Shown: positions 27,931 to 60,189, counted from the stretch's first letter. The stretch is 64,000 bases of DNA from a virus (IMGVR_UViG_2863177392_000001:2579-66578), one strand, 5' to 3'. The notes: generated by a model from the sequence alone, not told the origin. A program made the numbers and translations.

Positions 27931-27976
27931 CCGTCGAATCGAAGGCACAATGAACCATTGCCCTACGATTCAAAGG
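27931..27976. promoter_or_regulatory. paired 15-bp palindromic sites upstream of terS
   Basis: CCGTCGAATCGAAGG (27931) and CCTACGATTCAAAGG (27962). Confidence 0.7.
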
Positions 27977-30196: not shown

Positions 30197-30274
30197 TCTT
30201 CGATTCCAAGGTGTAGCGACCGGTGCTCATCTGCCCTCGGGTGCTCAACCTTCGTCTATCCTTCGATTCAAAGG
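30197..30274. promoter_or_regulatory. paired 15-bp palindromic sites upstream of the portal gene
   Basis: TCTTCGATTCCAAGG (30197) and CCTTCGATTCAAAGG (30260). Confidence 0.7.
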
Positions 30275-44814: not shown

Positions 44815-44816
44815 CC

Positions 44817-47687
44817 GTGCCCGTACAGGAGATCCTGAAAGCGCTCGGCTCGTGGGAGATCAAGCTCCTGCCGAGCACACCCCGCGAAGTCCTCGACTCC
44901 CTCGACTACTTCGGGCACGTCGCGATCGTGCCCGGCCGCCTCGACCCGCTGCAGTACGGCGACAACCTCCTCACCCCCGGGACCGCCCGCTACGTCGGCG
45001 TGCTCCGCACCCGCACCATCGGCGACGACGGCCGCACCAACACCCCCCAGGACGACCTCAGCGTCGGCGGGGTCGGGATGGCGTTCTGGCTCGGCGACGA
45101 GGACGGCAAGGGCGACGTCTACGAGAATGCTGTCGCCCCTGCCAGCGCCTCCTTCGCGACCACGATCAACATGCTGCTGCCCGCGTCCGGCGCGGTGACC
45201 GCTGGCACGATCTACCCGGTGCCCGGCACGTACACCGGCCGGCACCAGTACGAGTCGCCCCGCAAGGCGATCACCTACGTGTGCGACACGTTCTCCACCC
45301 CGTCGGTGCCGGTGTCGTGGCGCGTCAACAGCAACGCGACCCTCGACGCGGGCCCGGACTCGAACCTGTTCGTCACGGACCCCACCTGCGTCATCACCTC
45401 CAAGGACGCCGGCGAGGACATGAGCCTGCGGGCCCTGCCCGGGTCGGTGGACGTCACCAGGGACGTCGAGGACTACACCACCCGCGTCGTGCTGCTGGCC
45501 GAGGGCGAGGGCTCCAGCATCGCTACCGGCGCCGCGGACATCACCCCCGCGACCGGCTACAAGGACCTGCACGGCAACCCGCTGAAGCTGACGCGCCTCG
45601 TCAGCGAGTCGGACACCGCCACCGCGAACGCGGCCACGCGCGCGCAGCTGGCGCTGTCGCAGTTCACGTCGACCCGCAACGCGCTCACCCTGTCGACGAC
45701 CGACTACGACGTACACGGCAGCTTCGTGGTCGGCGACCGGGTATGGGTGTACGACCCCGACTCCGGACTGACCGACCCCACCACTGAGATCGTGTTCCGC
45801 GGGCAGCGCATCAACCCGATCAAACTGCAGGTCACCGAAACTTCGTGGGCGATCACCAACCAGTACACCGTCGCCTACCGCAACGCCGCCGGCGCATGGG
45901 TCGACCTCACCCAGTACGTCGACTGGGAGACCGACACCACCAGCACGGTGACCGTCGGCGACTTCTCCCGGCAGCTCACCAACACCGGCTCCGAGCCCGT
46001 CGGCTCGCGGCCCAACGCCGACACGTCCATTCCTGGGCAGCCTGTCCTCGTCACCCCGTTCGCCGGAAGCGCCTACCTTGACGGCCGCGGCTTCACCCGG
46101 GCCCGCGTCGTCCTCGCCTGGAACGCCCCGCTCAACACCGACGGCAGCACGATCATCGACGGCGACCACTACGAGATCCGCTACGCCGTCGACACCGACA
46201 TGATCTACCCGGCCACTTGGTCGCAGGTCTCTCAGGTGCGCTGGCAGGACCTGCAGATCTGGGCCCAGCCGTTCGCCGCGCCCTCAGGCCGCTGGCAGAC
46301 GATGGTCGTCCGCTGGGACACCACCACCGCCCAGCTGCAGGACCTCAGCCCGGGCATCGGCTACGACGTACAGATCCGCGCCATCGACACCACCGGCAAC
46401 ACGGGCGCCTGGTCGCCGGTGACGACGTTCGTGGCGTCGTCCGACAACATCCCGCCGTCGACGCCGGCCGCCCCGACGGTGGCCGGGTCACGGATCGCGG
46501 TGCAGGTGACGCACCAGCTCGGCAGGAGCACCGGCGGCACGTTCAACCTGGAATCGGACCTCGACCACCTGGAGATCCACGTCTCCTACGAGCCGACGTT
46601 CACCCCCGACACGACCACCCTGAAGGGGAAGGCGCCCGCGAACTCGGGGATGATCCAGGCGCAGATCCCCGTGGTGTTCACCGCGCAGGTCGAGGAGACA
46701 ACCGCCCGGTACGTGCGGGTCGTCGCGGTCGACAAGACCGGCAACAAGAGCGGGCCCAGCGATGCGGCGACGGCGACGGCTCTGCTGATCGACGACGCGC
46801 ACATCTCCGACCTGACCGTCTCCAAGGTCACCGCGGGCACGGTCTCCGCGTCGTGGGTGATGGCCGGGGAGATCAAGACCGCTGATGTCGGCGCCCGGGC
46901 CCGGATGTCGGCTGCGGGGTACGAGCTGTACAACTCGGGCGGCGACCGTACGTTCTTCGCTGACGCCTCGAACGGCGACGTGACGATCGTCGGCAAGCTC
47001 GTGTCAGGCACGTCGGGATTCCGCCTGGAAATCAACCCGGCCTCAACGTTGCCGGAATTGCGGTTCTATCCGTCCAGCGGCACCAACTATGCGTTCATCA
47101 ACAGCTTCCCCTTCTCGACAAGTGAAGCGGCACTCGGACTCGCCAGCAGCTCCTACGACGCCAGCGGCGTCGACGCCCACTCCCGGGTCCTCCTCACCGG
47201 CAACGGCGCCTACATGCAAACCGTCCGCACGGACACCCAAGCGACCTACGGCGGATTCGTACGCGCATCATCCCTCAGCTTCCAAGGGTCGTTCAACAAG
47301 GCAAGCACCGATGGCGGTGTTTTCTACGCGGACGAGTTCCTGGCCCGCGCAGGCTGGAACCCCACCGACAGCAACGCCAACTACTTCAACTTCTCCTCCG
47401 GCAAGACCTACCACATCGGCCAATGGGAGAACTTCTCCACGCCCTCCACCACCCAGGGCATCTTCATGGGCACCCTCCTTTTCGGCACGACCGCGTCCGC
47501 CTCCATCACCTACGGAGTGACGATGGCCTCCAACGTGATTCCCCTCGTGACCTGCGTGTCCGGGAACTTCGGTACGGCCACCCCCACCGTGTGGGGAATT
47601 CAGTCCTTCACCACCAGCGGATTCACCGTGGCCTGGAACAACAGCCAGGGAATGCGCCTCAACTTCCTGTGCCACCGGACGAACTGA
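44817..47687 (+). CDS. minor tail / central fibre protein with FN3-like domains
   Basis: YDVQIRAIDTTGNTGAWS and YVRVVAVDKTGNKSGPS FN3-like ends; ISDLTVSKVTAG. Confidence 0.8.
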   Translation: MPVQEILKALGSWEIKLLPSTPREVLDSLDYFGHVAIVPGRLDPLQYGDNLLTPGTARYVGVLRTRTIGDDGRTNTPQDDLSVGGVGMAFWLGDEDGKGDVYENAVAPASASFATTINMLLPASGAVTAGTIYPVPGTYTGRHQYESPRKAITYVCDTFSTPSVPVSWRVNSNATLDAGPDSNLFVTDPTCVITSKDAGEDMSLRALPGSVDVTRDVEDYTTRVVLLAEGEGSSIATGAADITPATGYKDLHGNPLKLTRLVSESDTATANAATRAQLALSQFTSTRNALTLSTTDYDVHGSFVVGDRVWVYDPDSGLTDPTTEIVFRGQRINPIKLQVTETSWAITNQYTVAYRNAAGAWVDLTQYVDWETDTTSTVTVGDFSRQLTNTGSEPVGSRPNADTSIPGQPVLVTPFAGSAYLDGRGFTRARVVLAWNAPLNTDGSTIIDGDHYEIRYAVDTDMIYPATWSQVSQVRWQDLQIWAQPFAAPSGRWQTMVVRWDTTTAQLQDLSPGIGYDVQIRAIDTTGNTGAWSPVTTFVASSDNIPPSTPAAPTVAGSRIAVQVTHQLGRSTGGTFNLESDLDHLEIHVSYEPTFTPDTTTLKGKAPANSGMIQAQIPVVFTAQVEETTARYVRVVAVDKTGNKSGPSDAATATALLIDDAHISDLTVSKVTAGTVSASWVMAGEIKTADVGARARMSAAGYELYNSGGDRTFFADASNGDVTIVGKLVSGTSGFRLEINPASTLPELRFYPSSGTNYAFINSFPFSTSEAALGLASSSYDASGVDAHSRVLLTGNGAYMQTVRTDTQATYGGFVRASSLSFQGSFNKASTDGGVFYADEFLARAGWNPTDSNANYFNFSSGKTYHIGQWENFSTPSTTQGIFMGTLLFGTTASASITYGVTMASNVIPLVTCVSGNFGTATPTVWGIQSFTTSGFTVAWNNSQGMRLNFLCHRTN

Positions 47688-47696
47688 GAAACCGCC

Positions 47697-48212
47697 ATGC
47701 CTGAGAAATGGACGGTCCGAGAGACCACCGCCCTCACCGTCGGCAGCACCCCCTGCTGGCAGGTCATCCTGGAGCGCCCCGACGGGCGCCTCCACGCCCA
47801 CCTCATGCCGACCATGGCCCTGGACGCCCGGGCCGCCGAGTACGGCATCGACCCGACCGACGTGGACGCGCTCCTGGAAGTCATCCTCCACGAGCCGCAC
47901 ATGCCCACCGTCGACGACGGGACGGGCCCCCGGTACGCCGACGGTGCCCCCGATCTGTGGGATGCCGAGAGCACCGACGCGGCCCGGCAGGCGCACCAGG
48001 CGCGGGTGCAGACGGCCGGTGTCCGGATCGACGTGCGTGGCGCCAAGGGCCTGGACGCCATCCGCAAGGGCCACCGGCCGGACCTGGCGACCGTCCGCGC
48101 CGTGCGGGAGGCCGTCGACACCGGCCGCTGGATCAAGCGCTACGGGGACCTGCCGGCCGGGCCGCGCCCCAAGGCGCCCGTCACGAACCCGAAGGAGGCC
48201 GCCCGTGCCTGA
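47697..48212 (+). CDS. tail-region hypothetical protein
   Basis: RAAEYGIDP...LLEVILHEPH; synteny. Confidence 0.65.
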   Translation: MPEKWTVRETTALTVGSTPCWQVILERPDGRLHAHLMPTMALDARAAEYGIDPTDVDALLEVILHEPHMPTVDDGTGPRYADGAPDLWDAESTDAARQAHQARVQTAGVRIDVRGAKGLDAIRKGHRPDLATVRAVREAVDTGRWIKRYGDLPAGPRPKAPVTNPKEAARA

Positions 48213-49248
48213 CACTCCCACCAGCCGCCTGGGCCTGTACAAGTCGAAGCCGGACGGATCCGAGCAGGTGTCCTACACGCAGGACATCGGCCAGAACCTC
48301 GACAAGCTCGACCTCGCCGCTGGCTTCCAGGCGTGCACCAACAGCACCCGGCCGTCGTCCCCGTACAGCGGCAAGCCGATCTTCGAGACGGACACCGGGT
48401 ACCGCACGTTCTTCTCCAACGGCACCTCGCCGGCGTCCGGCTCGTGGGTCGAGATCCCCAACGGCAGCGCCACCTTCAACAGCAGCCTGCGGCTCGCCGC
48501 AGGCAAGCAGCTCGTCATCGGCGGCAGCACCAGCGCGGCCAACGTCGCCGTCCTCAACGCCGCAACGAGCGACGACGTCCTGTCCGCCCGCGTGACAGGC
48601 GACACCCAGTCCCGCTACCTTCTCGAAGCCGACGGCGCCATGTCCTGGGGGGCGGGCGGTTCCACCGCCGCCGATGTCAGCCTGAGCCGCCCGGCGGCCG
48701 GCCGCCTCGCCGTGACCGCGACGAACGCCGCGTTCGGCATCGGCAGCGCCTACCTGCGGCCGATCCTGTCGGCTGCCACCACCCTGGCCAACTCGGCGGC
48801 GCAGACGGCGATCGCGACGTACACGATCCCGGCCGGCGACGCCGTGGCGGGCGCCGTGTACTGCATCCGGGCGTGGGGCACGCTGGCGGTCACCGGCACC
48901 CCCACCATGACGTTCGTGTGCAAGCTGGGCGGCGTCGCGGGCGCCGTCATGATCGCGTTCCCGGCTGTCACCGTCCGCTCCGGCGCGACGGACGGAACGT
49001 GGGACGCGGAGTTCTACCTCGCCTGCGCCAGCACCGGCGTGTCCGGGACCTGGGCGCCGATGGCGAAGTACACGCACAACTGGCTGACGAGCGCCACCAC
49101 GTACACGCCGGTCGGGCCGATCACCGCCGCGCCTGTCACGCGGGATACGACCGTGGCTTCCGACATGGTGCTGTGCGCGACCTGGGGCACTGCGTCCGCC
49201 TCGAACACGATCACCTGCCGCGGGTTCGCCGGGCAGCGCATCGCCTGA
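48205..49248 (+). CDS. tail fibre / receptor-binding-like protein
   Basis: TSRLGLYK...NLDKLD...STRPSSPYSGKPIFETDT; Ser/Thr/Gly-rich. Confidence 0.7.
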   Translation: MPDTPTSRLGLYKSKPDGSEQVSYTQDIGQNLDKLDLAAGFQACTNSTRPSSPYSGKPIFETDTGYRTFFSNGTSPASGSWVEIPNGSATFNSSLRLAAGKQLVIGGSTSAANVAVLNAATSDDVLSARVTGDTQSRYLLEADGAMSWGAGGSTAADVSLSRPAAGRLAVTATNAAFGIGSAYLRPILSAATTLANSAAQTAIATYTIPAGDAVAGAVYCIRAWGTLAVTGTPTMTFVCKLGGVAGAVMIAFPAVTVRSGATDGTWDAEFYLACASTGVSGTWAPMAKYTHNWLTSATTYTPVGPITAAPVTRDTTVASDMVLCATWGTASASNTITCRGFAGQRIA

Positions 49249-49258
49249 GGGAACAGGG

Positions 49259-49288
49259 CAGCCCGCCGGGCGGGGGCACGGCGGGCTG
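49259..49288. terminator. bidirectional hairpin terminator
   Basis: CAGCCCGCCG-N10-CGGCGGGCTG between convergent operons. Confidence 0.6.
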
Positions 49289-49310
49289 TGGAAGGTCGGT
49301 GGCGTGGGCG

Positions 49311-49508
49311 CTACGTGCTCGGGTCCGGTCCGGCCGGCACGCTGGCGTCCGCGTGCCCCTCGGCGGGCGGGGTGTTCTGCTGCTGCGCGGCGGCGAGCTG
49401 CCGCTCCAGGACGTCGACTTGTGCGCGAAGGAGGAGGTTCTCCTCGAACAGCTCCCCGAGCCGCTTGCGGAAGGTGGGGAACGCGTCCTCGATGCTGATC
49501 TGGGCCAT
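49311..49508 (-). CDS. small coiled-coil protein
   Basis: MAQISIEDAF...ENLLLRAQV; TGATG coupling. Confidence 0.65.
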   Translation of the reverse strand: MAQISIEDAFPTFRKRLGELFEENLLLRAQVDVLERQLAAAQQQNTPPAEGHADASVPAGPDPST

Positions 49509-50377
49509 CAGGCGACCGCCTTCTCTGCGAGTTCCCGGTACCGGTCCAGGAGGCTGGTGTTGTTGAGGAACGGGTGCTGCGGGAAGAACGACCAGTGGCT
49601 GACGATGGCGTCGCCGCGGAGGATGTTCGGTGCGCCGGCGGCGAGCGGGTGGTGGATGGTGTGCCAGGACTCCTCCTCGTCCGGGACGAGGACGCCGGGC
49701 CCGTCCGGCAGGCCGGCGTACATGCTGCCGAGGCTGGCGAAGCAGCTGACGGAGAACTGGGTGCCGGGCTGGATGGTGAAGTCCTGGTACAGGTAGAGCT
49801 GGTCGACGGTGCCGGCGTCGATGTGGTCGAGGAGCAGCTCGTGCAGGCGCACGGCGAAGGGCCCGTTGGCCCAGCCGACGGGGTCCATGCAGTAGGGCTG
49901 GACGGCGCCCCACTCCAGCGGGACCTTGCCGCAGGCCTGGAGGAAGTGGCTGCAGATCGCGTTGTTGAAGATGACCGGGAACACGGCGGTCGGGGCGGGC
50001 ATCTGGAGGCGGGCACGGACGAGGTTCTCGATCGCGTGCTCGTGGATGTAGACGACGTCGTCGTCGAAGCGGAGGTAGACCGCGTCGGGGTCGGTCATCT
50101 CGCGGTAGGCGAGGCCGGTGTAGCGCTGCTTGGGGAGGTGGCCGAGGTCGATGCCTTCGGGCCGGTGCTTGATCCGGAACCAGTCGGGGTGTTCGGCGGC
50201 GAGCTGGTGGGCGTAGGCGATGTCGTCTTCCTGGCCGGTGGGGTCGGTGTTCATGTAGGCCCAGACCTCGTCGATGAGGCCGCGGTGGACGTCGCGCTCC
50301 AGGTACTTGATGAGGATGCTGTAGGTGCGTTCCCGGCCGTAGGGGGTCCAGGCGATGACGCGCTTGCCGTCGATCAT
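49508..50377 (-). CDS. GT-A fold glycosyltransferase-like protein
   Basis: VIAWTPYGRE...YLRFDDDVVYI (DxD-type motif). Confidence 0.7.
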   Translation of the reverse strand: MIDGKRVIAWTPYGRERTYSILIKYLERDVHRGLIDEVWAYMNTDPTGQEDDIAYAHQLAAEHPDWFRIKHRPEGIDLGHLPKQRYTGLAYREMTDPDAVYLRFDDDVVYIHEHAIENLVRARLQMPAPTAVFPVIFNNAICSHFLQACGKVPLEWGAVQPYCMDPVGWANGPFAVRLHELLLDHIDAGTVDQLYLYQDFTIQPGTQFSVSCFASLGSMYAGLPDGPGVLVPDEEESWHTIHHPLAAGAPNILRGDAIVSHWSFFPQHPFLNNTSLLDRYRELAEKAVA

Positions 50378-50640
50378 GTGGGGTCTCCTGGGGTGGTGGC
50401 GTGCTGCGCCTTGGGGTCGATGAGGTCCGGCAGGCCCTCGACGTCGTCGGGGCGGTAGTGCGTGCCCCAGTGGTCGTCGCGGTCGAAGGCGTCGATGGCT
50501 TGGCGCTGTAGCTCGGCGAGTTCGTGGGCGTGCAGGTCGAGAACCGTGTGTGCGGCGTGCTCGGCCTGCTCCCGGGTGTGCGGCACGCTGAGCAGGGCCA
50601 CGAGGATGGCGTGTACGTTGACGGCGAGGCGCTCGGTCAT
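50374..50640 (-). CDS. phage hypothetical protein
   Basis: HAHELAELQR...DLIDP; coupled. Confidence 0.6.
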   Translation of the reverse strand: MTERLAVNVHAILVALLSVPHTREQAEHAAHTVLDLHAHELAELQRQAIDAFDRDDHWGTHYRPDDVEGLPDLIDPKAQHATTPGDPT

Positions 50641-51395
50641 GGGATCCTCCTCGTAGTGCGGTGCTTGGGCGGCCAGACCCCGGAATCCGCCGTCCACGGC
50701 AGATCCGGATGCAGACGCCGGAACAGATCCACGCTCGCCGCATGCCACTCGCCGCGGTCATGGGACAGCTGGCCCGGGTGGACACGCACGAAGTACAGCG
50801 GCTGTTCGATCACCGCATACCGGGTCAGCCCCGCCTTCCACACCCGGATCCAGAACTCCCAGTCCTCCGCCGCACCGTGGCTCCCGGGCAGCGTGGCCTT
50901 CAGGCTGTACCCGCCCACCGCCTCCCACGTCTCCCGCCTGATCAGCGCCTTGTCAATCAGCGGCGGCCACACCACCAGGTCGTCCAGCCCGCAGTCCGGC
51001 AGCGACGCCTGCACATGCTCGGCCTCCCCGAACTGCTGCGCCCACGGCACCACGAAGTCCCGGCCGCCATCCGCGTCGAGAACGGCCGCACACCGGGCGA
51101 TGCACTCCGGGTGCAGCCGGTCATCCGCGCTCGCGGTGAACAGTGCGTCGCAGCCGTCGTCCAGGGCCAGCTGCGCGGCGGCGTTGAGGCTGCCCGCCCA
51201 GCCCTTGCGGGTCCGGTTGCGGCGCAGGCCTGCCCACAGGTCGGGGTGGTCGCGCAGCCACTCGTAGGTGCCGTCGTCGGAGCGGTCCTCGGCGACGTAG
51301 GCGTGCGCGGGGTGGGTCTGGCTCTGGACGGAGGCGAGCATCTCGCCGATCCACGGCGCCGCGTTGCGGGCAGGGATGATGACGCCGATCTTCAC
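50637..51395 (-). CDS. GT2-family glycosyltransferase
   Basis: VIIPARNA...LASVQSQT...EDRSDDGT...SLN...SADD...EAVGGY...AEDWEFWIR. Confidence 0.9.
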   Translation of the reverse strand: MKIGVIIPARNAAPWIGEMLASVQSQTHPAHAYVAEDRSDDGTYEWLRDHPDLWAGLRRNRTRKGWAGSLNAAAQLALDDGCDALFTASADDRLHPECIARCAAVLDADGGRDFVVPWAQQFGEAEHVQASLPDCGLDDLVVWPPLIDKALIRRETWEAVGGYSLKATLPGSHGAAEDWEFWIRVWKAGLTRYAVIEQPLYFVRVHPGQLSHDRGEWHAASVDLFRRLHPDLPWTADSGVWPPKHRTTRRIP

Positions 51396-52270
51396 CACTG
51401 CCTCCCGAGCCAGTCGAGGGTGTCGCTGACGCCGTCGGCCCACGCAACCCTGGGGGTCCAGCCGCGGACACCGCTGATCGACGTGTTGTCGGTGACGACA
51501 CGGTGCAGGTCGCCGGGCAGAGCCTCGTCGTGGGTGACGGGGTGCCGGGTGCCCGTCTCGTGCTCCAGGGCGGAGAGGAGCCCGAGGAGGCTGACCTCGT
51601 TGGCGGGGCCGCCGCCGACGTCGTACGGGTCGCGGCGCTCGTAGTCCGCGAAGTGCTCGGCGATGTCGACGAGGAGGGCGGTGAAGTCGTCGATGTGGAG
51701 GATGTCGCGGGACTGGGTGCCGTCGCCATGCAGGGTGAGGGGCTGCCCGGTGAGGAACGCCTTGAGGAACCAGGTCACCCACCCTGCTTCGGCGCTTCCG
51801 GCCTGGCCGGGCCCGTACACGGTGGAGGGGCGGAGGATGACGGAGGGCAGGCCGTACAGGTCGCCGTAGAGACGGAGGTAGTCCTCGCCGACGCGCTTGG
51901 ACTGGCCGAGCGGGGCGACCCGGCCGTCGGCGCCGGGGTAGACCTTGACCGTGCTGGTGTAGATGACGGGGATGCCGCCGGCCCAGCGCGCGGCCTCGCA
52001 GACGTTGACGGTGCCGACGGCGTTGTCGTGGAAGTCGCCGATGGGGTCGCGGAAGCTGACCTGGGTGGAGCAGGAGGCGCCGAGGTGGGCGATGACGTCG
52101 GGGCGGGTGTCGCCTACGACCCAGCGGAGGAAGTCGAGGTCGCTGGTGGAGCGGCCGTGTCGCTTGTCGATGGGGGTGACGGTGTGGCCGCGCGCGGCGA
52201 GGGCGGTGTAGAGGTGGCTGCCGATGAAGCCTTCGGCGCCGGTGACGAGGACCCTGAGGCTAGTCGTCAT
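51392..52270 (-). CDS. NAD-dependent NDP-sugar epimerase/dehydratase (extended SDR; catalytic Tyr apparently replaced)
   Basis: VLVTGAEGFIG, HLGA, RPSTVYGPG, GDGTQSRD; PLGQSK in place of YxxxK. Confidence 0.88.
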   Translation of the reverse strand: MTTSLRVLVTGAEGFIGSHLYTALAARGHTVTPIDKRHGRSTSDLDFLRWVVGDTRPDVIAHLGASCSTQVSFRDPIGDFHDNAVGTVNVCEAARWAGGIPVIYTSTVKVYPGADGRVAPLGQSKRVGEDYLRLYGDLYGLPSVILRPSTVYGPGQAGSAEAGWVTWFLKAFLTGQPLTLHGDGTQSRDILHIDDFTALLVDIAEHFADYERRDPYDVGGGPANEVSLLGLLSALEHETGTRHPVTHDEALPGDLHRVVTDNTSISGVRGWTPRVAWADGVSDTLDWLGRQW

Positions 52271-52523
52271 AGCGTGCCACCTCCGCCCGGCAACGCGTCA
52301 GCGTGTAGTCGAGCAGGCCCATCAGCCGGTGGTACGGGATGCCTCCGCCGCCTTCGGGGAGGATGGTGCCGACCTGGGTGATGCCGTCGCCGTCTTGGTC
52401 GTAGCGTTGAGCGGCGAAGATGACGGCCCACTCGGTGAGTACGCCCTCGGCTTCTTCGAGGTGGGCGACCTCGTTGATGGCGTCGGCGAGTCGCTGGTAG
52501 GCGGCCTTCGTCTCTGCGTTCAC
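52260..52523 (-). CDS. phage hypothetical protein
   Basis: VLTEWAV...PYHRLMGLL; coupled. Confidence 0.65.
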   Translation of the reverse strand: MNAETKAAYQRLADAINEVAHLEEAEGVLTEWAVIFAAQRYDQDGDGITQVGTILPEGGGGIPYHRLMGLLDYTLTRCRAEVARYDD

Positions 52524-52717
52524 CAGCCCACCGCTTTCTGCCAAGCGACGCTGAGGGTGAACTTGTCCTCGGCGTGGACGGCGGTGAGCGCGGCGAGGAA
52601 GTGGGCCTGCGCCTGGGCGGCGAGCGCTGCTGCCTCCCCGGGGTGGAAGGCCAGGCTGGTGTCTTGGGACTCGGCGAGGAGGCGTTCGCCTTCGCGGTAG
52701 TGGTCGGGCCCGGTCAC
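52520..52717 (-). CDS. phage hypothetical protein (TGPDHYREGERLL), paralog of 909..1169
   Basis: Shared N-terminal and AQAH motifs. Confidence 0.65.
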   Translation of the reverse strand: MTGPDHYREGERLLAESQDTSLAFHPGEAAALAAQAQAHFLAALTAVHAEDKFTLSVAWQKAVGW

Positions 52718-53727
52718 ACGGTCACCGCCTCGGGCACGCGGACTACCGCCTCCCACTGGTGGTGCAGCGCCTGCATGATGCTCCCCGACGCCTCACCACG
52801 CGCCGTCATCCCGATCCGCTCCCGCAGCTCGGGATCGTCCACCAACCGCTTCAAGTACCGGCCCCACTCGTGCTCGTACCGCACCAAGAACCCGTTCTCC
52901 CCATGCCGGATCACCCGCCGGTACGCCTCCGTGTCCGACGCGACCAGCGGGATGCCCAGCACGCTGGCCTCCAGCCACTTCGTCGGGAACTTCGCGGCGT
53001 TGAAGGGCGTGGACCGGTACGGCGCGCACCACACGTCGAACTCCCCGACCGCGTGCAGGTAGTGCTCCAGCCGCTCCACCCAGCCCAGCGCCCCCACCCG
53101 CCGGCCCCGCAGGCCCAGCCCCATCGCCTGCTCCGCGCCGATCCCCACCAGCCGCACCATCACCCCGTCCCCGCCGCGCGGGTACTGCGCGATCCGGTTC
53201 AGGGCGCGCACCGCCTCCGGCAGCTCGGCGACCGTCGATGTCGTCCCGGCCCAGCCGATGTACAGCGGCCGTCCCTCGGCCGTGTAGTCGCGGGGGTGGC
53301 CGAGGTACTGGGCGGGCAGCCCGTTTGGGATGACCCGCACGTCGGCCGCGTAGTCGCGCAGCACTGCGGCGAGGGGCTCGGTGACGCAGGTGACGAGGTC
53401 GGCGAGGGCGAGGTTGTCGGCGAGCCGGCGGAGCATGTCCGGTGTCCAGGCCTCGACGGCGGCGCGGTTGGACGGGTCGAGGTGGAAGTAGTCGTCGTCG
53501 AGGTCGAGGACCAGCCGCTTGCCCTCCGTCTTGAGGTGCTGCCACATCTTCGTGGGGCCGGTCTGGGCGACGCGGCAGCCGACGATCGTGTCGTAGGAGG
53601 CCCAGTTGGGTGGGAGGCGGACGCCGTGGCTGGTCTGGTGGCCGAGCCAGGACAGGGCCATGGCGGGGAGGACGGCGCGGTAGAAGGCGCTGCCGGCCGT
53701 GTCGGCGGACCAGAAGTGGACTCTCAT
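52714..53727 (-). CDS. GT-B fold (GT4-like) glycosyltransferase
   Basis: DLDDD, VIPNG, IGWAG, AP....FN.AK...KWLEASVLGIPLVASD...HGENGFL. Confidence 0.88.
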   Translation of the reverse strand: MRVHFWSADTAGSAFYRAVLPAMALSWLGHQTSHGVRLPPNWASYDTIVGCRVAQTGPTKMWQHLKTEGKRLVLDLDDDYFHLDPSNRAAVEAWTPDMLRRLADNLALADLVTCVTEPLAAVLRDYAADVRVIPNGLPAQYLGHPRDYTAEGRPLYIGWAGTTSTVAELPEAVRALNRIAQYPRGGDGVMVRLVGIGAEQAMGLGLRGRRVGALGWVERLEHYLHAVGEFDVWCAPYRSTPFNAAKFPTKWLEASVLGIPLVASDTEAYRRVIRHGENGFLVRYEHEWGRYLKRLVDDPELRERIGMTARGEASGSIMQALHHQWEAVVRVPEAVTV

Positions 53728-54233
53728 CGCGAGGTACCGCCCTTCTCCTTGCGGGCACTGCACTGCACGGCCTCGCGCAGGGCCTCTGGGGTGAAGGTGG
53801 TGTCGCCGATGCAGACGTCGACCTGCGGGGAGCCCTTGGCGGCGTCGAGCTGTCGGTACAGGCTGGCGGTCTCGCGCTGGCGGGCGGCGGCCTGCTCGGT
53901 GAGCTGGTGCCAGGTGGTGTCGCGGGAGAGGAGCAGGGCGTCGCAGAGGGCGAGGCGGGTCTGCTCGTGGGCGTGGAGGAGCTCGGCGGTCTGGGCGTCG
54001 CCTTCGGCGGGCGCGGTCGGCTCGTTGGCCGGGATGGTCACGGTGTCCTGGAAGACGAGGACCGTGCGGGCGCCGATCTGCTCGGCGACGCCCGCGAACT
54101 CGTCTGCCGGCGAGTGCTCCTGGTCGAGCCCCAGGACGTAGCGGCGCGGCTCGTACTCATCGACGATCAGGGCGAACGGCGGCCGATCGTCGTCGGCGGC
54201 GTCGGGGAGCGGCAGGATCTGCAAGCGGGCCAC
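53724..54233 (-). CDS. phage hypothetical protein
   Basis: MARLQILPLP...PPFALIVDE; coupled. Confidence 0.65.
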   Translation of the reverse strand: MARLQILPLPDAADDDRPPFALIVDEYEPRRYVLGLDQEHSPADEFAGVAEQIGARTVLVFQDTVTIPANEPTAPAEGDAQTAELLHAHEQTRLALCDALLLSRDTTWHQLTEQAAARQRETASLYRQLDAAKGSPQVDVCIGDTTFTPEALREAVQCSARKEKGGTSR

Positions 54234-54234
54234 C

Positions 54235-54465
54235 TCAACCCTCCTCGCCGCTCGGCGCCAGCCCGCGTAGCGCGTCGGCGATCACGAGTAGCGCGGAGGC
54301 GATGGCCAGGTTCGACCGCACTGTGAGTGCACCGATCGCGGTCGGACCATCCAGGTCACGCGGGCGCCCAGACGGCAGAGCTTCGATCAAGCGCAGGCTC
54401 TCGGCCGTCTCGTTGACCACGTGCAAGGCGTGCTCGTATGGCAGACGCCGGATCTGCTCAGGCAC
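54235..54465 (-). CDS. phage hypothetical protein
   Basis: Coupled ORF. Confidence 0.55.
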   Translation of the reverse strand: MPEQIRRLPYEHALHVVNETAESLRLIEALPSGRPRDLDGPTAIGALTVRSNLAIASALLVIADALRGLAPSGEEG

Positions 54466-55429
54466 TGACCCCCGCCTCCTTCAGCCAGCCGGGCAGCCAC
54501 TCGCTGGCGTAGAAGTCGACCGTCCGCCGTACTCCCTCCTCCAGCGACACGAAGTCCGCCGCCGACATGCCGATCTGCTGCAACGTCGACGTGTCCGACT
54601 TGACCACCGCGTTCGGGACCTCGCCCGGCCGCATCGGCAGGTGCTTGATCCCGACCGGCTCCCGGCCCGTCACCTTCGCCGCGTACTCGGCGACGAGGCG
54701 CGCGATGTCGTTGACCGTGCACGACGTCATCGGACCGACCTCCACCGGCGCCTGCGTGGGCCGCCCGGTCTCGGCGTTGTGCTCGAGCGCCGTCACGAAC
54801 GCCCTGGCCACGTCCTCCACGTACACGCAGTCCGAGACCTGCGTGCCGTCGCCGTACACCTCGATGTCCGCGCCCGTCAGCGCCCGGCACGTCAGCGCCG
54901 GCAGGATCTTCCGCACCTTCGATGTGCCGTACGGCGCGGCGACGGACTGGCCGGGCCCGTAAGCGTTGACCGGCCGGACGATTGTGATCTGCCCACCCTC
55001 CCGGTACGCGTTGTACATCCGGGCGAGGTCCTCGGCCGCGCTCTTGGTGATCGTGTAGCAGCCGGTGCCCTGCAGGCGCATGAAGTGGTTACCGACGCCG
55101 GCGTACACGGTGGGGAGCTGGTACTGGGTGGCGCCCTCAAAAACGTTCAGGCTGCCGAGGATGTTCGTCTCGGCGGAGGGGCGGGGGTTGCTGATGGTCT
55201 CCTGGGTGCCGAGGACGGCGGCGAGGTGGATGATGCCGTCGACGTGGGCGGCGGCTTCGGTGACGGCGACGTGGTCGCGGACGTCGCCGAGGAAGAACTC
55301 CTCGCCGCGGGCGAGGTGTTGGCGGCGGTCCTGGTGGTCGAGGATGAGGGTGGTGTGGCCGCGGGCGGTGAGTTCGCGGCGGATCCAGGTGGCGATGAAG
55401 CCGGTGCCGCCGGTGACGAGGACCTTCAT
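54458..55429 (-). CDS. NAD-dependent NDP-sugar epimerase/dehydratase (extended SDR)
   Basis: VLVTGGTGFIA, HLAA, YTITK, RPVNAYGPG, YGDGTQ, MRPGE motifs. Confidence 0.92.
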   Translation of the reverse strand: MKVLVTGGTGFIATWIRRELTARGHTTLILDHQDRRQHLARGEEFFLGDVRDHVAVTEAAAHVDGIIHLAAVLGTQETISNPRPSAETNILGSLNVFEGATQYQLPTVYAGVGNHFMRLQGTGCYTITKSAAEDLARMYNAYREGGQITIVRPVNAYGPGQSVAAPYGTSKVRKILPALTCRALTGADIEVYGDGTQVSDCVYVEDVARAFVTALEHNAETGRPTQAPVEVGPMTSCTVNDIARLVAEYAAKVTGREPVGIKHLPMRPGEVPNAVVKSDTSTLQQIGMSAADFVSLEEGVRRTVDFYASEWLPGWLKEAGVSA

Positions 55430-56157
55430 GAGTGGTGCTCCTTGGTGGGCGCGCCGTCGAGGGCGCGGATGGTGGGGCAGGGATACGGCACGCCGTCCTC
55501 GCGGGTGCAGTGCTCGCAGAGGCCAATCTCTTCTCGGTGCAGTGCGCGCACACGGGAGATGGCCGCTTCGGCGCTGTCCGGTTCGTCGGTGGCGAGGGCC
55601 TCGCGGGCGCGGCGGATCTGGTAGCGGAGCGACTCGATGGTCGCCTGCGCTTCCTCCAGTGGCGTTGGGACGGGCGGGGCCTCGGGGTACGTGCCGTCGT
55701 CCGGAAGGGGCGGCTCGGGCTGCTGCCGGGCCAGGGTGTACGCCTCAGAGAGGTCGTCGGCGTTGGCGATGAAGGTGTGGCGGCACGGCTGGAAGCTCAG
55801 CCGGAAGCCGCTGTTGGCGATGTCGGAGGAGCTGCTCAGGCGTTCGGGCGCCTGCTGGCACGTCGGGCAGGACGGCAACGTCGGCACGGGCCTGCCGAGG
55901 AGGACGCTGTTCTCCCGGTGCTGCACGGCGACGACGAGCGTGTAGAGCTGCTCGACGGTGAGGGTGACCGGCTCGGCCGGTGTGGCGGCGGTCGGCGTGC
56001 GGTCGGCGTGGGGACAGACCTTGCAGTGCTCGCACTGGGGGGCGTTGTCCGGGCAGTCGCAGCGCGGGCAGCGCCGGGCGGGGCACTGGATGGGGTTGCC
56101 CCAGCCGTCGGTGTGGGTCTCGCCGCCGCATTCGGGCCGCTGGCACGGATCGGTCAT
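55426..56157 (-). CDS. Cys-rich mosaic phage protein, first gene of the antisense operon
   Basis: Several CxxC motifs; C-terminal ISRVRALH...YPCPTIRALDG. Confidence 0.65.
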   Translation of the reverse strand: MTDPCQRPECGGETHTDGWGNPIQCPARRCPRCDCPDNAPQCEHCKVCPHADRTPTAATPAEPVTLTVEQLYTLVVAVQHRENSVLLGRPVPTLPSCPTCQQAPERLSSSSDIANSGFRLSFQPCRHTFIANADDLSEAYTLARQQPEPPLPDDGTYPEAPPVPTPLEEAQATIESLRYQIRRAREALATDEPDSAEAAISRVRALHREEIGLCEHCTREDGVPYPCPTIRALDGAPTKEHHS

Positions 56158-56267
56158 GAGAGTGCTCCAGTGCGGGTTGTGCGGGTCGGTGCGGGTTTAT
56201 GACGGTGAGGGCCACCCGCACGGGGCCCCCACCGTCGGTCCCTCTGAGAGGACTGCCAGGAACTGTA

Positions 56268-56313
56268 CCTTCGAATCGATGGAGATTGGCAAGCTCAGGC
56301 TACGATTCCAAGG
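56268..56313. promoter_or_regulatory. paired 15-bp palindromic sites between the glycosylation operon and the endolysin
   Basis: CCTTCGAATCGATGG (56268) and GCTACGATTCCAAGG (56299). Confidence 0.7.
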
Positions 56314-56341
56314 AGTCGGTTCGACGGATGGAGGACTCCCC

Positions 56342-57265
56342 GTGGCCACACCGATGAGCGCCGAACAATTCGCCGCAGCTCTACACGCCGAGGGCATCAC
56401 CGTCGTCGAAGTCGGCGACTGGGCCCACCACAACCGCAACACCAAGGGCCCCTGGGGCCCCGTGCACGGCGTGATGATCCACCACACCGTCACATCCGGC
56501 ACGACCAACACCGTCGGCATCGTCCGCGACGGCTACTCCGGCCTGCCCGGACCCCTCTGCCACGGCATGATCGCCAAGAACGGAACGGTGTACCTGGTCG
56601 GCTACGGCCGCGCCAACCACGCCGGATTGGGCGACCCCGACGTCCTGCGCGCCGTCATCACCGAGAAGCCGCTTCCCCCCGACGACGAAGCCACGGTCGA
56701 CGGGAACCGCGCGTTCTACGGCTTCGAGTGCGAGAACCTCGGCGACGGCCAGGACCCCTGGCCGCCGGAGCAACTGGAGGCGATCGAGCGCACGGCCGCC
56801 GCGATCTGCCGCCACCACGGATGGGACGCGCTCTCCGTCATCGGGCACCTGGAGTGGCAGCCCGGCAAGGTCGACCCCCGCGGCTTCACCATGGCGTCCA
56901 TGCGCGCCCGGATCGCGAGCCGTCTCAGCAGCAAGCCGCCCACGACCCCGCTGCCGGCGCCGAAGCCGCCGACGATCGACCTGTCCAAGCTGCGCGAGGC
57001 CGCCCGCACCAACCCCGGAATGAAGGGCACCCCGTGCACCTACGAGGGCGTGCGGATCTGGGAGGCCGCCCTCGTCGACGAAGGGTTGCTCGCCAAGAAG
57101 CGCCTCGACGGGCACTTCGGTACGGACACCAAGACCGCCACCTCCGAGTGGCAGGAGCGCCTCGGCTACCGCGGCCGCCAGCCCGGCCAGCCCGCCGACG
57201 GCATCCCCGGCCTCGACTCGGCCAAGCGGCTGGGCGCCCGGCACGGCTTCAAGGTCGTGGCGTGA
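56342..57265 (+). CDS. endolysin (N-acetylmuramoyl-L-alanine amidase + peptidoglycan-binding domain)
   Basis: GVMIHHT, GRANHAG, GFECEN, GHLEW..GKVDP; DGHFG..T..A...WQ...ADGIPG. Confidence 0.92.
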   Translation: MATPMSAEQFAAALHAEGITVVEVGDWAHHNRNTKGPWGPVHGVMIHHTVTSGTTNTVGIVRDGYSGLPGPLCHGMIAKNGTVYLVGYGRANHAGLGDPDVLRAVITEKPLPPDDEATVDGNRAFYGFECENLGDGQDPWPPEQLEAIERTAAAICRHHGWDALSVIGHLEWQPGKVDPRGFTMASMRARIASRLSSKPPTTPLPAPKPPTIDLSKLREAARTNPGMKGTPCTYEGVRIWEAALVDEGLLAKKRLDGHFGTDTKTATSEWQERLGYRGRQPGQPADGIPGLDSAKRLGARHGFKVVA

Positions 57266-57615
57266 TCCTCAACCTGACCCCGCACCCGATCCGCATCTAC
57301 CAGGCGGACCGGCCCGACGGCCTCGACGACCTGGAGCCCGGCCTCCGCCTCGTCATCGAGCCGGAGAAGCGGCCGGCCCGGCTCGGCGTCGTCCCACACA
57401 GCAGCGAGTACCGCGACGGCATCCCCGTCGAGGTCGTCCAGTACGGCCACGCCATCGGCCTGCCCCGCCGCCGCGAGGGCGCCTCCTACATCGTGTCGCT
57501 GCCCGTCGCACTCGCGCTGGCCCCGCGCCGCGCCGACCTGCTCGTCCCCTACCGCGAGGTCCGCAACGCCTCCGGGACCGTCATCGGCTGTCGCCAACTG
57601 GCCCAGCCCGTCTGA
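57262..57615 (+). CDS. conserved phage protein (NLTPH motif)
   Basis: ILNLTPHPI...YIVS...RADLLVP...VRN..G.VIGC. Confidence 0.7.
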   Translation: MILNLTPHPIRIYQADRPDGLDDLEPGLRLVIEPEKRPARLGVVPHSSEYRDGIPVEVVQYGHAIGLPRRREGASYIVSLPVALALAPRRADLLVPYREVRNASGTVIGCRQLAQPV

Positions 57616-57627
57616 AAGAGGAAGCCC

Positions 57628-57894
57628 ATGTCCGAGATCAACATGCCCAACACCGAGACCGTCGTGAAGACGGCAAAGACGTACGCCAGAGACCTGGCCG
57701 AGCGCACCCTGGCCACTGCGGTCGTCGCGGCCGGCGGCGTCGCCATCGCGGCGGGCCCTGGCGACATGTTCCACGCCAGCTTCTGGGAGACGATGGCGGC
57801 CGCCGCCATCGCCGCCGCCGGGACCCTGGTGAAGGGCATCCTGGCCCGCGCGTTCGGCAGCAAGAACAGCGCGTCCCTGGCCAAGGGCGTCTGA
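57628..57894 (+). CDS. holin-like protein
   Basis: DLAERTLAT, two TM segments, SASL; downstream of the lysin. Confidence 0.75.
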   Translation: MSEINMPNTETVVKTAKTYARDLAERTLATAVVAAGGVAIAAGPGDMFHASFWETMAAAAIAAAGTLVKGILARAFGSKNSASLAKGV

Positions 57895-58325
57895 TGCGCG
57901 CGGCGGCCAGGCGGCTTACCGACCGACTCGGCCGCCGCGGCGCCCTCCTCACCCTCAAGGGCGTGATCGCCTCCCTCTACGGCTACGGGCAGATCGTGCA
58001 ACCACCCGAGGACCTGCGCGGCCTGTGCCTCCTTCTCAAAGCGTGGCCCCTCGACGTGTGGGGCGCCCTCTGGATGGCGGCCGGAACCACCGCGCTGGTC
58101 TGCTCCTGGTTGCCACCACGTCGGGACTGGCCGGGCTTCCTCGCCGTGTGGGCCATCACCGCCCCCTGGTCCATGTCCTATCTCGCGGCGTGGTGGCCCC
58201 TGGGCGAGTACCCGCGGGGCTGGGTTCCCGCCGTCATCTTCGGCGCGTTCGGCTTGGTCTGCCTCGTCGCAATCGGCTGGACGGAGCCGCTCCGCGCACG
58301 ATCGGAGCCACCGCGTGAGACCTGA
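57894..58325 (+). CDS. multi-TM membrane protein (lysis cassette)
   Basis: Four hydrophobic segments. Confidence 0.7.
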   Translation: MRAAARRLTDRLGRRGALLTLKGVIASLYGYGQIVQPPEDLRGLCLLLKAWPLDVWGALWMAAGTTALVCSWLPPRRDWPGFLAVWAITAPWSMSYLAAWWPLGEYPRGWVPAVIFGAFGLVCLVAIGWTEPLRARSEPPRET

Positions 58326-58683
58326 GATGCTGACCGCGCTGAGCGCGCTGGCCGTCGCCCTCGTGACTGCTGCGGGCGGCATCGTCACCGCCATCGTCGG
58401 CCGGCGCCAGCCGCGCGGGCAGCAGCGCCGGGATGATTTCACCACGATCGTCGGCGAGCTCCGTACCAGCCTCGGCGAGGTGAAGACGGAACTGGCTGAG
58501 CAGAAGGCCGAGTCCGAACGGGACCGCGGCAGGATCGCCTCCCAGGATTTCGCGCTGCGGTACATCGCCAGCTGGTGCCGGACGCTGGTCGGCTACATGC
58601 GGGACCAGCACCTGGAGCCGCCACCCCCGCCTCATCCCGTACCCGAAGAGGTCCAGCCGTATCTCCACGACCTGAACAGCTGA
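58315..58683 (+). CDS. membrane-anchored coiled-coil protein (lysis cassette)
   Basis: N-terminal TM, coiled coil, Pro-rich end. Confidence 0.7.
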   Translation: MRPEMLTALSALAVALVTAAGGIVTAIVGRRQPRGQQRRDDFTTIVGELRTSLGEVKTELAEQKAESERDRGRIASQDFALRYIASWCRTLVGYMRDQHLEPPPPPHPVPEEVQPYLHDLNS

Positions 58684-58705
58684 AGTCCGTAAGAGGAGTA
58701 GCCCA

Positions 58706-59152
58706 ATGGCTTCGATCGTTTTCAATGTCGCCCTCGGCCGTGTCGCATCGCTCGCCGCGCTGCCCGCCGCCAACGACGGCCTGGTCCTCGTGCCGCTGGA
58801 AGCGTCCGGGTTGGAGACCGACGCCGTCCTCCGCGACAAGGACACCCTCGCCGACGTGGTGGCCGGCACCACCAACGAGCAGACCAGCGTTGGCCGCAAG
58901 GCCTTGGCGGGCGTGACGGTCACCGTCAACGACACCAACGACCGGGTCGAGGTGGACGCCACCGACGTCACCTGGACCTCACCCACCGGCAACGCCATCG
59001 GCGCCGTGGTGATCTGCTACGACCCCGACACCACCACCGGCACCGACGCCGACCTGGTCCCGCTCACCAAGCACGACGTGGCCTGGACGCCGGACGGGAA
59101 CGCGTTCACCCTGTCGATCGCCGACTTCTACCGGGCGAGCTCCACCGCCTGA
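58706..59152 (+). CDS. putative structural protein
   Basis: Beta-rich, Thr/Asp-rich; VTVNDTNDRVEVDATDVTWT; GAGGAG RBS. Confidence 0.65.
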   Translation: MASIVFNVALGRVASLAALPAANDGLVLVPLEASGLETDAVLRDKDTLADVVAGTTNEQTSVGRKALAGVTVTVNDTNDRVEVDATDVTWTSPTGNAIGAVVICYDPDTTTGTDADLVPLTKHDVAWTPDGNAFTLSIADFYRASSTA

Positions 59153-60189
59153 TGACCAGCTTCAGTGACGACTTCAACCGGCCCGACTCCACCGACTTGG
59201 GCGCCGGGTGGGTGGAGGTGTCCGGCGACTGGTCGATCATCTCGCAGCAGCTCTCGCCGGGCGCCGCGGGCGGCACGATCATCCTCCGCGCGGCCACGGC
59301 GATGGCCAGCAACGACAACTTTGCGCAGGTCACCATCGCTGCCACGACGGCGGCGAGCCAGGGCGTGTGGTGCCGCGGCAACGCGAACATCAGCCAGGGC
59401 TACCTGTGGCGGAACAACGGATCGACGTGGGACCTGTTCGCGGTCGTCGGCGGATCGTTCCTCGTCATCGGCACGTACTCGGCTGCCGCCGCCCCCGGCG
59501 ACGTCGCCAAGGTCCAGGCAGTCGGCTCTGCGATCCGCGGGTTCGTCAATGGCATCGAGCGGGTCAACGTCACCAACACCGATGTGCCCACCGGTACGAG
59601 CGTCGGCATCCGCGCCGAATCGGTCAGCGGGCTGCGATTCGATGACTTCGCCGCCGCCGATGTCACGGCCGGTGCCACCCTCGGTACCGCCACCTCCACC
59701 GAGGCAGCTCAGCCCCTCACCGCCGCCAAGATCGGCGCGCTCGCTACCGCCGCGGAGACCGCCGCCGCCCAGCTGCTGACCGGGGCCAAGGCCGCCGCGC
59801 TCACCGTGGCGTCCGGGCTGGACAGCGCGCAGATTCTCACCGGTGCCAAGGCGGCCGCCCTCGCTCCGGCCGGGGCCGCCGAGTCGGCTCAGCCGCTCGC
59901 CGGGGCCAAGACTGTGGTCCTCACCCCAGCCGTCGAGCAGGACGCCGCCCAGGCCCTGAGCGGGGTGGCACCGTCCGTGCTCGGCCCCGCAGGCACCGCC
60001 GAGACCGCGCTGCCGCTCATGGGGGCCAAGACGGCGGCCCTGGTGCCTGCGCTGGAGGTGGACATCGCGCGCCTGCTCATCGTGCCGTCGTCCGGCACGC
60101 CGAGCCCGGAGCGCACCTTCACCGTCCCCGCCGAGCGCCGGCGCTTCGCTGTGCCCGCCGAGCGCCGCACCCTGATCGTCCGGAGGTAA
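59152..60189 (+). CDS. putative fibre/appendage protein with lectin-like N-domain and ~20-aa repeats
   Basis: FSDDFNR...FDDF beta-sandwich; 6-7 repeats of the type ...AQ.LTGAK. Confidence 0.65.
   Translation: MTSFSDDFNRPDSTDLGAGWVEVSGDWSIISQQLSPGAAGGTIILRAATAMASNDNFAQVTIAATTAASQGVWCRGNANISQGYLWRNNGSTWDLFAVVGGSFLVIGTYSAAAAPGDVAKVQAVGSAIRGFVNGIERVNVTNTDVPTGTSVGIRAESVSGLRFDDFAAADVTAGATLGTATSTEAAQPLTAAKIGALATAAETAAAQLLTGAKAAALTVASGLDSAQILTGAKAAALAPAGAAESAQPLAGAKTVVLTPAVEQDAAQALSGVAPSVLGPAGTAETALPLMGAKTAALVPALEVDIARLLIVPSSGTPSPERTFTVPAERRRFAVPAERRTLIVRR

Follow-up and report, generated by a model that had tools for sequence, protein, structure and literature searches.

A minus-strand operon of a putative Streptomyces prophage, at positions 49311–56157 of the 64,000-nt stretch of IMG/VR record IMGVR_UViG_2863177392_000001 analyzed here (hereafter the window), encodes three predicted glycosyltransferases and two extended short-chain dehydrogenase/reductases (SDRs), and we interpret it, with about even confidence, as a cytoplasmic glycosylation cassette that acts on the virion proteins of the phage (Table 1). 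We favor this interpretation because of a profile-level link between one of the transferases and gp36 of mycobacteriophage Corndog, the layout of the related genes in Zukovirus, the occupancy of the genomic slot that the operon fills, control sites in common with late genes, the solubility of the enzymes, and the mostly viral membership of the sequence clusters nearest to that transferase. Glycosylation of phage virions is already known; new here are the family fold and invariant residues of the GT-A enzyme, the non-canonical active sites of the SDRs, the frequencies at which core, accessory, and alternative cassettes occur, the linkage of cellular relatives to the UDP-galactopyranose mutase gene (glf), and the coverage of the operon in RNA libraries. 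To our knowledge, virion glycosylation has so far been shown only for a few mycobacteriophages, in which the glycans shield particles from antibodies; putative glycosyltransferases were reportedly noted in some Streptomyces phages by Freeman and colleagues in 2023. If the interpretation is correct, virion glycosylation extends to Streptomyces prophages of a widespread family that uses a different set of enzymes, and Streptomyces is a tractable, non-pathogenic host for asking what phage glycans do in soil.

In the proposed scheme, nucleoside diphosphate (NDP)-sugars of the host are probably remodeled by one SDR (SDR-A), as well as by the second (SDR-B) where it is present; a GT4-type glycosyltransferase probably initiates glycan synthesis on the acceptor; and the GT-A enzyme of the Corndog gp36 family, together with an optional GT2, probably extends it. 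Virion proteins would thereby be modified in the cytoplasm while being made. As acceptor we infer the capsid, the tail tube, or a Ser/Thr-rich protein of 155 amino acids (aa), and we place the identity of the sugars, the sequence in which the enzymes act, and the late timing on the same footing. The 155-aa protein is encoded right after the capsid gene (34753–35220); it is acidic, has Ser/Thr-rich ends, and belongs to no family. It may be a decoration protein and is a candidate for the glycan acceptor.

The operon consists of eleven well-scoring genes and one weak 76-aa open reading frame (ORF), as judged by codon-position GC, and spans the distance from a 196-bp divergent region in common with the endolysin to a terminator hairpin that faces the tail genes. 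Neighboring genes overlap by 1–11 nt or stand 1 nt apart, and are thus tightly packed. An antisense operon of this kind between tail and lysis genes had been proposed in the original prediction, made by a model from the sequence alone, and the gene calls bear it out (the tail genes end at 49248 and the endolysin starts at 56354). The weak ORF may not be a real gene, given its coding score. A mechanically listed ORF at 49311–49913 is not a single 200-aa gene: the 65-aa gene 49311–49508 is there followed by the GT-A gene. The proposed enzyme complement of three glycosyltransferases (GT-A-like, GT2, and GT4) and two extended SDRs is upheld by Pfam, and for the GT-A enzyme by its structural model and an invariant Asp triplet. 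For the GT4 enzyme, PF13692 (Glyco_trans_1_4) scores 1.7e-12 (48.2 bits vs. a cut-off of 27) and PF00534 (Glycos_transf_1) 1.6e-11 (44.5 bits vs. 26.4), and for the GT2 enzyme the Glycos_transf_2 domain of Pfam reaches 52.2 bits (cut-off 23.3).

The 289-aa protein of the third glycosyltransferase gene (P0002) has no sequence match in Pfam, PHROG, NCBIfam, or the PDB; PDB sequence and profile searches returned chance matches only, and tblastn against phages found just two Synechococcus phages, at 22% identity. On its predicted structure, the protein is a GT-A-fold glycosyltransferase of a large, undescribed family. The AlphaFold model (predicted local distance difference test, pLDDT, 97.2; predicted template modeling score, pTM, 0.93) has 207 PDB matches at E ≤ 0.001, which among the matches listed are GT-A-fold glycosyltransferases and nucleotidyltransferases. 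The top Z scores (13–14, over ~200 residues) belong to GnT-I, ppGalNAc-T2, Mnn9, and SpsA, with hyaluronan synthase, TarP, and RmlT also tied; because the structural matches are all tied, no CAZy family can be named. Across 86 aligned relatives, R15, D105-D106-D107, N138, and H261 are invariant, of which D105–D107 constitute the DXD metal- and donor-binding motif. The protein has 394 homologues in a clustered database and matches 875 representative clusters (50% identity) at E ≤ 0.001; this large glycosyltransferase family is without a Pfam model or a solved structure. In the Atlas clusters nearest to the protein, 64–90% of the members with known phylum are viral. Members of the family occur fused to GT2 and GT4, to GT90 and a methyltransferase, and to sulfotransferase, TPR, and PqqD-like domains; a Pithovirus methyltransferase fusion aligns to the model with a template modeling (TM) score of 0.79.

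The link to an established glycosylation system is provided by Corndog gp36. When the family profile (alignment A1) was compared with gp36 by hhalign, the match had a probability of 97.8% and an E value of 1.1e-12 over 249 columns, and the invariant Arg, DDD, NN, and His positions of the family line up with those of gp36. Neither Corndog gp37 nor Che8 gp109, which were considered as further relatives, matches the profile. According to PMC12363180, which cites Freeman et al. 2023 (Cell Host Microbe 31:1216), glycosylated proteins were identified for Che8, Corndog, and Myrna, and Che8 gp110 and Corndog gp38 are essential glycosyltransferases for capsid glycosylation. The genes associated with O-glycosylation of mycobacteriophage virions are Corndog gp35–38 and Che8 gp108–110 (see also PMC11256854). 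The Corndog block lies between the portal and protease genes and comprises a TylF-like methyltransferase (gp35), gp36, a GT2-like enzyme (gp37), and a GT25-like enzyme (gp38).

Like the mycobacteriophage systems, the Streptomyces cassette is a cluster of soluble glycosyltransferases in an actinobacteriophage, and a GT2-type enzyme is found in both; Corndog gp36 is in addition a profile-level relative of the 289-aa enzyme. The GT25-like enzyme (gp38/gp110) of Corndog and Che8 and a methyltransferase are, however, absent from the Streptomyces cassette, which thus has one component in common with the proven system, and not the defining one. Conversely, the GT4 enzyme and the two SDRs are not present in the mycobacteriophage clusters examined. 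The locations also differ: the Streptomyces cassette is antisense to the late genes in the gap between tail and lysis genes, whereas the Corndog cluster is in the head module and that of Che8 at the right end of the genome. For Corndog and Che8, glycosylated proteins have been identified, whereas the Streptomyces cassette is predicted from its genes. The Zukovirus phages KimJongPhill and Zuko, of a related lineage, encode a GT4 homologue (29–32% identity to the GT4 enzyme of the cassette; E 1e-30) and an extended SDR. Their genes 4–6 (SDR, methyltransferase, and GT4) head the late operon, immediately before the terminase genes and on their strand. Unlike the cassette, Zukovirus has a methyltransferase and lacks a member of the GT-A family, a second SDR, and a GT2; its glycosylation genes, too, are putative. 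Gene 4 of KimJongPhill (1199–2251) is annotated as UDP-glucose dehydrogenase and is an extended SDR according to Pfam (Epimerase 2e-42; GDP_Man_Dehyd 4e-35).

Among 45 related IMG/VR loci, which were found through the 289-aa GT-A protein, GT4 is encoded at a minimum of 40% identity in 38 and an SDR-A orthologue in 40; GT2 is present in 18, and an SDR-B orthologue in 15, always together with GT2. Judged from these counts, the core of the cassette is SDR-A, GT4, and the GT-A enzyme, and GT2 and SDR-B are an optional module. A minimal cassette, with the three core genes close together, is found in 16 of the loci. The small ORFs of the window operon each recur in 1–17 loci, except for the last, 65-aa gene (32 loci). 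The arrangement is constant: the cassette is convergent with the tail genes in all 39 loci that include tail genes, and the endolysin is divergent upstream of it in 13 of the 14 loci where an endolysin was detected.

A reverse search with the tail protein 43606–44814 yielded 38 loci, of which 32 could be judged and six were dropped, having <5.6 kb after the match. Of these 32, the slot is occupied by a P0002-type cassette in 25 and by a different antisense glycosylation cassette in six; thus, with some cassette in 31 loci, the slot is almost always filled by glycosylation genes. In the sole exception, the most distant locus, the tail genes run straight into a lysis amidase. The alternative cassettes encode a GT4 in five of six cases, a GT2 and an SDR in most, and a methyltransferase in five of six; two have a 2-oxoglutarate (2OG)-Fe(II) oxygenase, one of these with a nucleoside triphosphate (NTP)-transferase as well. 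By gene content, GT4 is therefore the most constant element of the slot, with its partner enzymes swapped, and the occupancy of the slot is, on these counts, unlike the patchy pattern of a sporadic moron.

The control region upstream of the operon contains two copies of a 15-bp palindrome, CCTTCGAWTCGAAGG, that also occurs upstream of late genes. With ≤3 mismatches allowed, there are six sites vs. 0.81 expected (0 of 100 shuffles reach six), arranged as three pairs; sharing of late palindromes between the operon promoter region and the endolysin, as anticipated from the sequence, was confirmed. To judge by their arrangement, the pairs look like operator pairs of some regulator. A pair 31–32 bp apart is present upstream of the cassette in 31 of the 45 related loci and stands ~40 bp from the endolysin start wherever an adjoining endolysin was detected. 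Because the sites are palindromic, they could serve both divergent units; because their distance is fixed to the endolysin and variable to the cassette, they are suggested to be primarily endolysin sites. A search of 48900–57000 for sigma-70-like promoters found none. At the opposite end of the operon, the hairpin at 49259–49288 is likely to be a two-way terminator: the stretch folds at -42.5 kcal/mol over 101 nt (z -3.54), and none of 200 shuffles folds equally well.

The three glycosyltransferases are soluble and of the Leloir type, and the cassette appears to operate without membrane components. The highest hydrophobic 19-residue window of the enzymes is ≤1.46 (Kyte–Doolittle), which leaves no transmembrane-grade segment, and the operon proteins match none of the flippase, polymerase, or polyprenol-phosphate transferase families of Pfam and NCBIfam; the absence of a flippase, polymerase, or multi-pass transferase had been noted from the sequence and stands. 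The further step, from a membrane-free cassette to a cytoplasmic one, holds insofar as the enzymes are soluble, but soluble enzymes may also convert the host surface, for which TarP of Staphylococcus aureus is a precedent.

The two SDRs have atypical active sites. In PDB alignments, SDR-A retains GxxGxxG and YxxxK, but A-G-V replaces S-S-T of GalE and a loop is shortened; the resulting YAGVGN-type motif, without the catalytic Ser/Thr, is present in all 40 SDR-A orthologues from the related loci. SDR-B retains T-S-T and the Lys, and has Leu (PLGxSK) in place of the catalytic Tyr of 7ys8, 9rl0, and 1orr, as do 15 of 15 orthologues. The N-terminal GxxGxxG NAD-binding motif is found in all orthologues of both proteins (40/40 and 15/15). 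Because the substitutions are conserved, they do not represent decay, and in both lineages these conserved active-site changes call for a biochemical explanation. For neither SDR does any NCBIfam equivalog come near its cut-off. No nucleotidyltransferase is present with the cassette, and any sugar must therefore come from the NDP-sugar pools of the host. The original prediction that the phage makes its own nucleotide sugar is thus doubtful, given an SDR-A without the catalytic Ser/Thr, an SDR-B with Leu for Tyr, and the lack of a nucleotidyltransferase.

The genomic neighborhoods of cellular relatives of the GT-A enzyme suggested a possible donor. A scan with the A1 profile of one genome per prokaryote species gave 197 relatives, of which 80 were kept for analysis. 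Sixteen of these are actinobacterial, mostly Streptomyces loci, and are 67–89% identical to the GT-A protein; the other 64 are 28–58% identical and belong to Pirellulales, Verrucomicrobia, Alphaproteobacteria, cyanobacteria, and others. A glf gene is located ≤8 kb away in 29 of the 80 loci, mostly ≤3 kb; each of these 29 belongs to the non-actinobacterial group of 64 and comes from Planctomycetota, Verrucomicrobiota, cyanobacteria, Bacteroidota, or Alphaproteobacteria. The linkage suggests that the cellular members are galactofuranosyltransferases, of a family that would be undescribed; the E. coli K-12 galactofuranosyltransferase WbbI, compared with A1 by hhalign (probability 0.3%), is unrelated. 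For the phage enzyme, a galactofuranose donor was discarded: glf is found near none of the 16 actinobacterial loci, in none of five host genomes with the prophage-type gene, and nowhere in the phage record. With no mutase in the hosts tested or the phage record, the phage enzymes must use another donor.

Several results weigh against the virion as the target. The C-termini of the capsid and tail-tube proteins have no Ser/Thr-rich extension, and a C-terminal acceptor motif common to virion proteins was looked for and not found. The late genes run opposite to the operon, which has a terminator of its own and belongs to a temperate lineage. The operon contains no methyltransferase; no such family matches in the operon or in the other window genes scanned. 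The cassette proteins give no blastp match to a homologue of the GT25-like Che8 gp110 and Corndog gp38, and a six-frame search of the 85%-complete record matched neither PF01755 nor Che8 gp110. The full Ser/Thr-Tyr-Lys triad is found in neither SDR. Chromosomes of cellular organisms commonly carry distant relatives from the GT-A family, which is therefore not virus-specific. Finally, the coverage of the operon in RNA runs from a lysogen, with sparse coverage of tail genes, is consistent with expression in the prophage state. An oligosaccharide on virion proteins, as originally predicted, is still the leading reading by virtue of the gp36 link, the soluble enzymes, and the late control sites, but it now stands beside the absence of the GT25-like enzyme of Che8 and Corndog and a live rival in host conversion.

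Parts of the window are contained in six RNA runs, of which four, from one organism, were compared over 40001–60000; the contigs match without differences in the pieces listed. The operon and endolysin (49.3–57.3 kb) are covered by contigs in all four runs, whereas the bins at 44003–46003 (tail genes) are bare or nearly so, and coverage of the tape-measure gene is low. Such contigs carry neither strand nor a reliable level, DNA carry-over is possible, and gaps in contig coverage are no proof of silence; the pattern thus at most hints that the operon and endolysin are transcribed where the tail operon is less represented. It fits either expression in the prophage state or, in cells induced spontaneously, late transcription near the promoter, and because the same contigs cover the endolysin, the coverage may reflect spontaneous induction. 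The strongest coverage in all four runs (word depth 6.5–15) is at 46689–47330, where the local G+C is lower (0.67); this is the 3' part of a plus-strand minor-tail/J-like gene (44817–47687; phrog_11445 and phrog_31 matches), and the coverage could stem from a promoter inside the gene, from antisense RNA, or from a fragment of high stability.

Together with the temperate character of the lineage, these lysogen contigs keep conversion of the host surface alive as an explanation, and we regard it as a serious possibility, although on balance an unlikely one. Soluble enzymes expressed from the prophage would modify a cytoplasmic or lipid-linked precursor of a Streptomyces wall glycopolymer, or a glycosylated receptor protein, and by changing the cell surface block, for example, superinfection or the re-adsorption of particles. 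Close homologues of the operon genes in many Streptomyces chromosomes are consistent with this, as are the self-contained, antisense layout of the operon, its separate terminator, its place between the genes for tail and lysis, the alternative gene sets in one fixed slot, which recall serotype-converting loci, and the operon coverage in four of four RNA runs beside sparsely covered tail genes. TarP is a soluble prophage GT-A enzyme that transfers N-acetylglucosamine (GlcNAc) to wall teichoic acid, and it is among the tied structural matches (PDB 6h4f and 6h21; DXD motif; Z 12.8, root-mean-square deviation 3.3–3.4); it is, however, one of many tied GT-A matches, at 10–11% identity, and its gene stands alone, with neither SDRs nor partner transferases. 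The GtrABC loci of Shigella and Salmonella phages are, like the cassette, glycan-modifying sets of temperate phages with a fixed locus and variable content. Gtr systems require a flippase, a bactoprenol glucosyltransferase, and a multi-pass membrane transferase; by Pfam, NCBIfam, and hydrophobicity, none of the three, and no GtrA/GtrB-type or other membrane component, was found in the Streptomyces cassette. Further arguments against host conversion are that a slot filled in 31 of 32 lineage members would be unusual for a conversion moron, that the control sites are common to packaging, portal, and endolysin genes, that the endolysin is in the same RNA contigs, such that spontaneous induction could explain them, and that the homologues of known context, those of Corndog and Zukovirus, lie within a module of virion genes or at its start. 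If host conversion were nevertheless correct, the Streptomyces envelope would be subject to a novel type of lysogenic conversion.

A broader proposal, which we put forward tentatively and consider rather doubtful, is that the slot is a glycan-diversity locus. A constant GT4 would be combined with interchangeable sets of enzymes, one of which is built on an undescribed GT-A family with glf-linked cellular members and includes non-canonical SDR-like proteins, either for new nucleotide-sugar chemistry or in non-catalytic roles; expressed from the prophage, the operon would remodel the host surface, whether in addition to the virion or in its place.

It is improbable, in our estimation, that during infection the cassette acts on some other soluble acceptor, whether a small molecule or a protein of the host cytoplasm (e.g., a metabolite or defense factor that is thereby inactivated). 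The enzymes are soluble, and the varied fusions (TPR, methyltransferase, sulfotransferase, and PqqD-like) indicate that the GT-A family acts in varied contexts; yet no PADLOC family matches, the operon points to no particular small molecule, and its conserved place next to virion genes would be left unexplained. Glycosylation of a modified base of the phage DNA, by which restriction would be evaded, is very improbable: soluble phage glycosyltransferases do glycosylate DNA in T-even and some other phages, and a DUF5131 protein is encoded at 10322–11476, but a six-frame search of the record for the PF00303 thymidylate-synthase-like hydroxymethylase found none (10 of 14 control genomes match), in agreement with the original prediction, in which no base hydroxymethylase was recognized; the genes scanned include no kinase or base-modifying family, three transferases and the SDRs exceed the needs of DNA glucosylation, and the context of the relatives is that of virion genes.

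The genomic setting is that of a siphophage. The window comprises bases 2579–66578 of a 66,578-bp IMG/VR record that is classed as a provirus, with an estimated completeness of 85%; its G+C content is 67–75% in 2-kb windows. Genes were called by third-codon-position GC, and families were assigned by PHROG and Pfam scans of those calls, which give a siphophage gene order with the early and replication genes first. The nearest named phages are the Zukovirus phages of Streptomyces (capsid identity 49–50%), and no close DNA relative of the operon emerged when the phage collection was searched by megablast. No integrase was found in the record, which is only 85% complete; a tyrosine integrase is encoded in three of five related proviruses, including both with at least 90% completeness, and close homologues of the operon genes are also carried by chromosomal contigs of Streptomyces as long as 1.9 Mb. 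On these grounds the lineage is, as deduced from its genes, one of temperate Streptomyces phages.

Table 1. Features of the window, in order of position, with the basis of each assignment; fractions refer to the 45 related loci.
Feature	Position	Strand	Basis and remarks
Palindrome pair 27931/27962	27931-27976		Centers 31 bp apart; upstream of gene 28002
Terminase large subunit	28589-30193	+	PHROG/Pfam
Palindrome pair 30197/30260	30197-30274		Centers 63 bp apart; upstream of portal gene
Portal gene	between terminase and capsid	+	PHROG/Pfam
Capsid	33788-34687	+	PHROG/Pfam
Tail tube	37384-37944	+	PHROG/Pfam
Tape measure	38789-43606	+	PHROG/Pfam
Minor tail genes	last end at 49248	+	PHROG/Pfam
GC-rich hairpin	49259-49288	.	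Between convergent ends of operon and last tail gene
Putative glycosylation operon, whole block	49311-56157	-	Gene calls
Last gene, 65 aa	49311-49508	-	No family; fairly well conserved, 32/45
GT-A-fold glycosyltransferase, 289 aa (P0002), core	49508-50377	-	Predicted structure and invariant residues; no Pfam family
88-aa protein	50374-50640	-	No family; 3/45
GT2 (GT-A) glycosyltransferase, 253 aa, accessory module	50637-51398	-	PF00535 8.8e-14; 18/45
SDR-B, extended SDR, 292 aa, accessory module	51392-52270	-	PF01370 2.1e-41 (142 bits); nearest GalE and CDP-tyvelose 2-epimerase
87-aa small phage protein	52260-52523	-	phrog_4307, weak DUF7213 match; 5/45
65-aa small phage protein	52520-52717	-	phrog_16141; 17/45
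GT4-type (GT-B) glycosyltransferase, 337 aa, core	52714-53727	-	PF13692, PF00534, phrog_7162 5e-40
169-aa protein, accessory	53724-54233	-	No family; 7/45
Weak 76-aa ORF bridging SDR-A and next gene	54235-54465	-	Below coding-score threshold; 1/45; hydrophobic window 1.77
SDR-A, GalE-like extended SDR, 323 aa, core	54458-55429	-	PF01370 1.2e-38 (133 bits), Pfam; orthologue in 40/45
First gene, 243 aa	55426-56157	-	Cys-rich N-terminus, no family; poorly conserved, 3/45
Divergent control region, 196 bp	56158-56353	.	Between first gene of operon and endolysin
Three direct GTGCGGGT repeats, 9-10 nt apart	56170-56196	.	Just upstream of first start codon of operon, by hairpin
GC-rich hairpin, 13-bp stem	56201-56236	.	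Precedes first start codon on minus-strand transcript
Palindrome pair	56268-56282 / 56299-56313		Centers 31 bp apart; cassette/endolysin intergenic region
Endolysin	56354-57265	+	PHROG/Pfam; followed by holin-like gene, +

No Rfam family was found in the window. Proteins of phrog_16141 are encoded twice in the window, at 909–1169 in the early region and at 52520–52717 inside the operon. The early region also encodes a Gp3-like protein of the recombination-directionality-factor type (2110–3267), as well as the DUF5131 protein.

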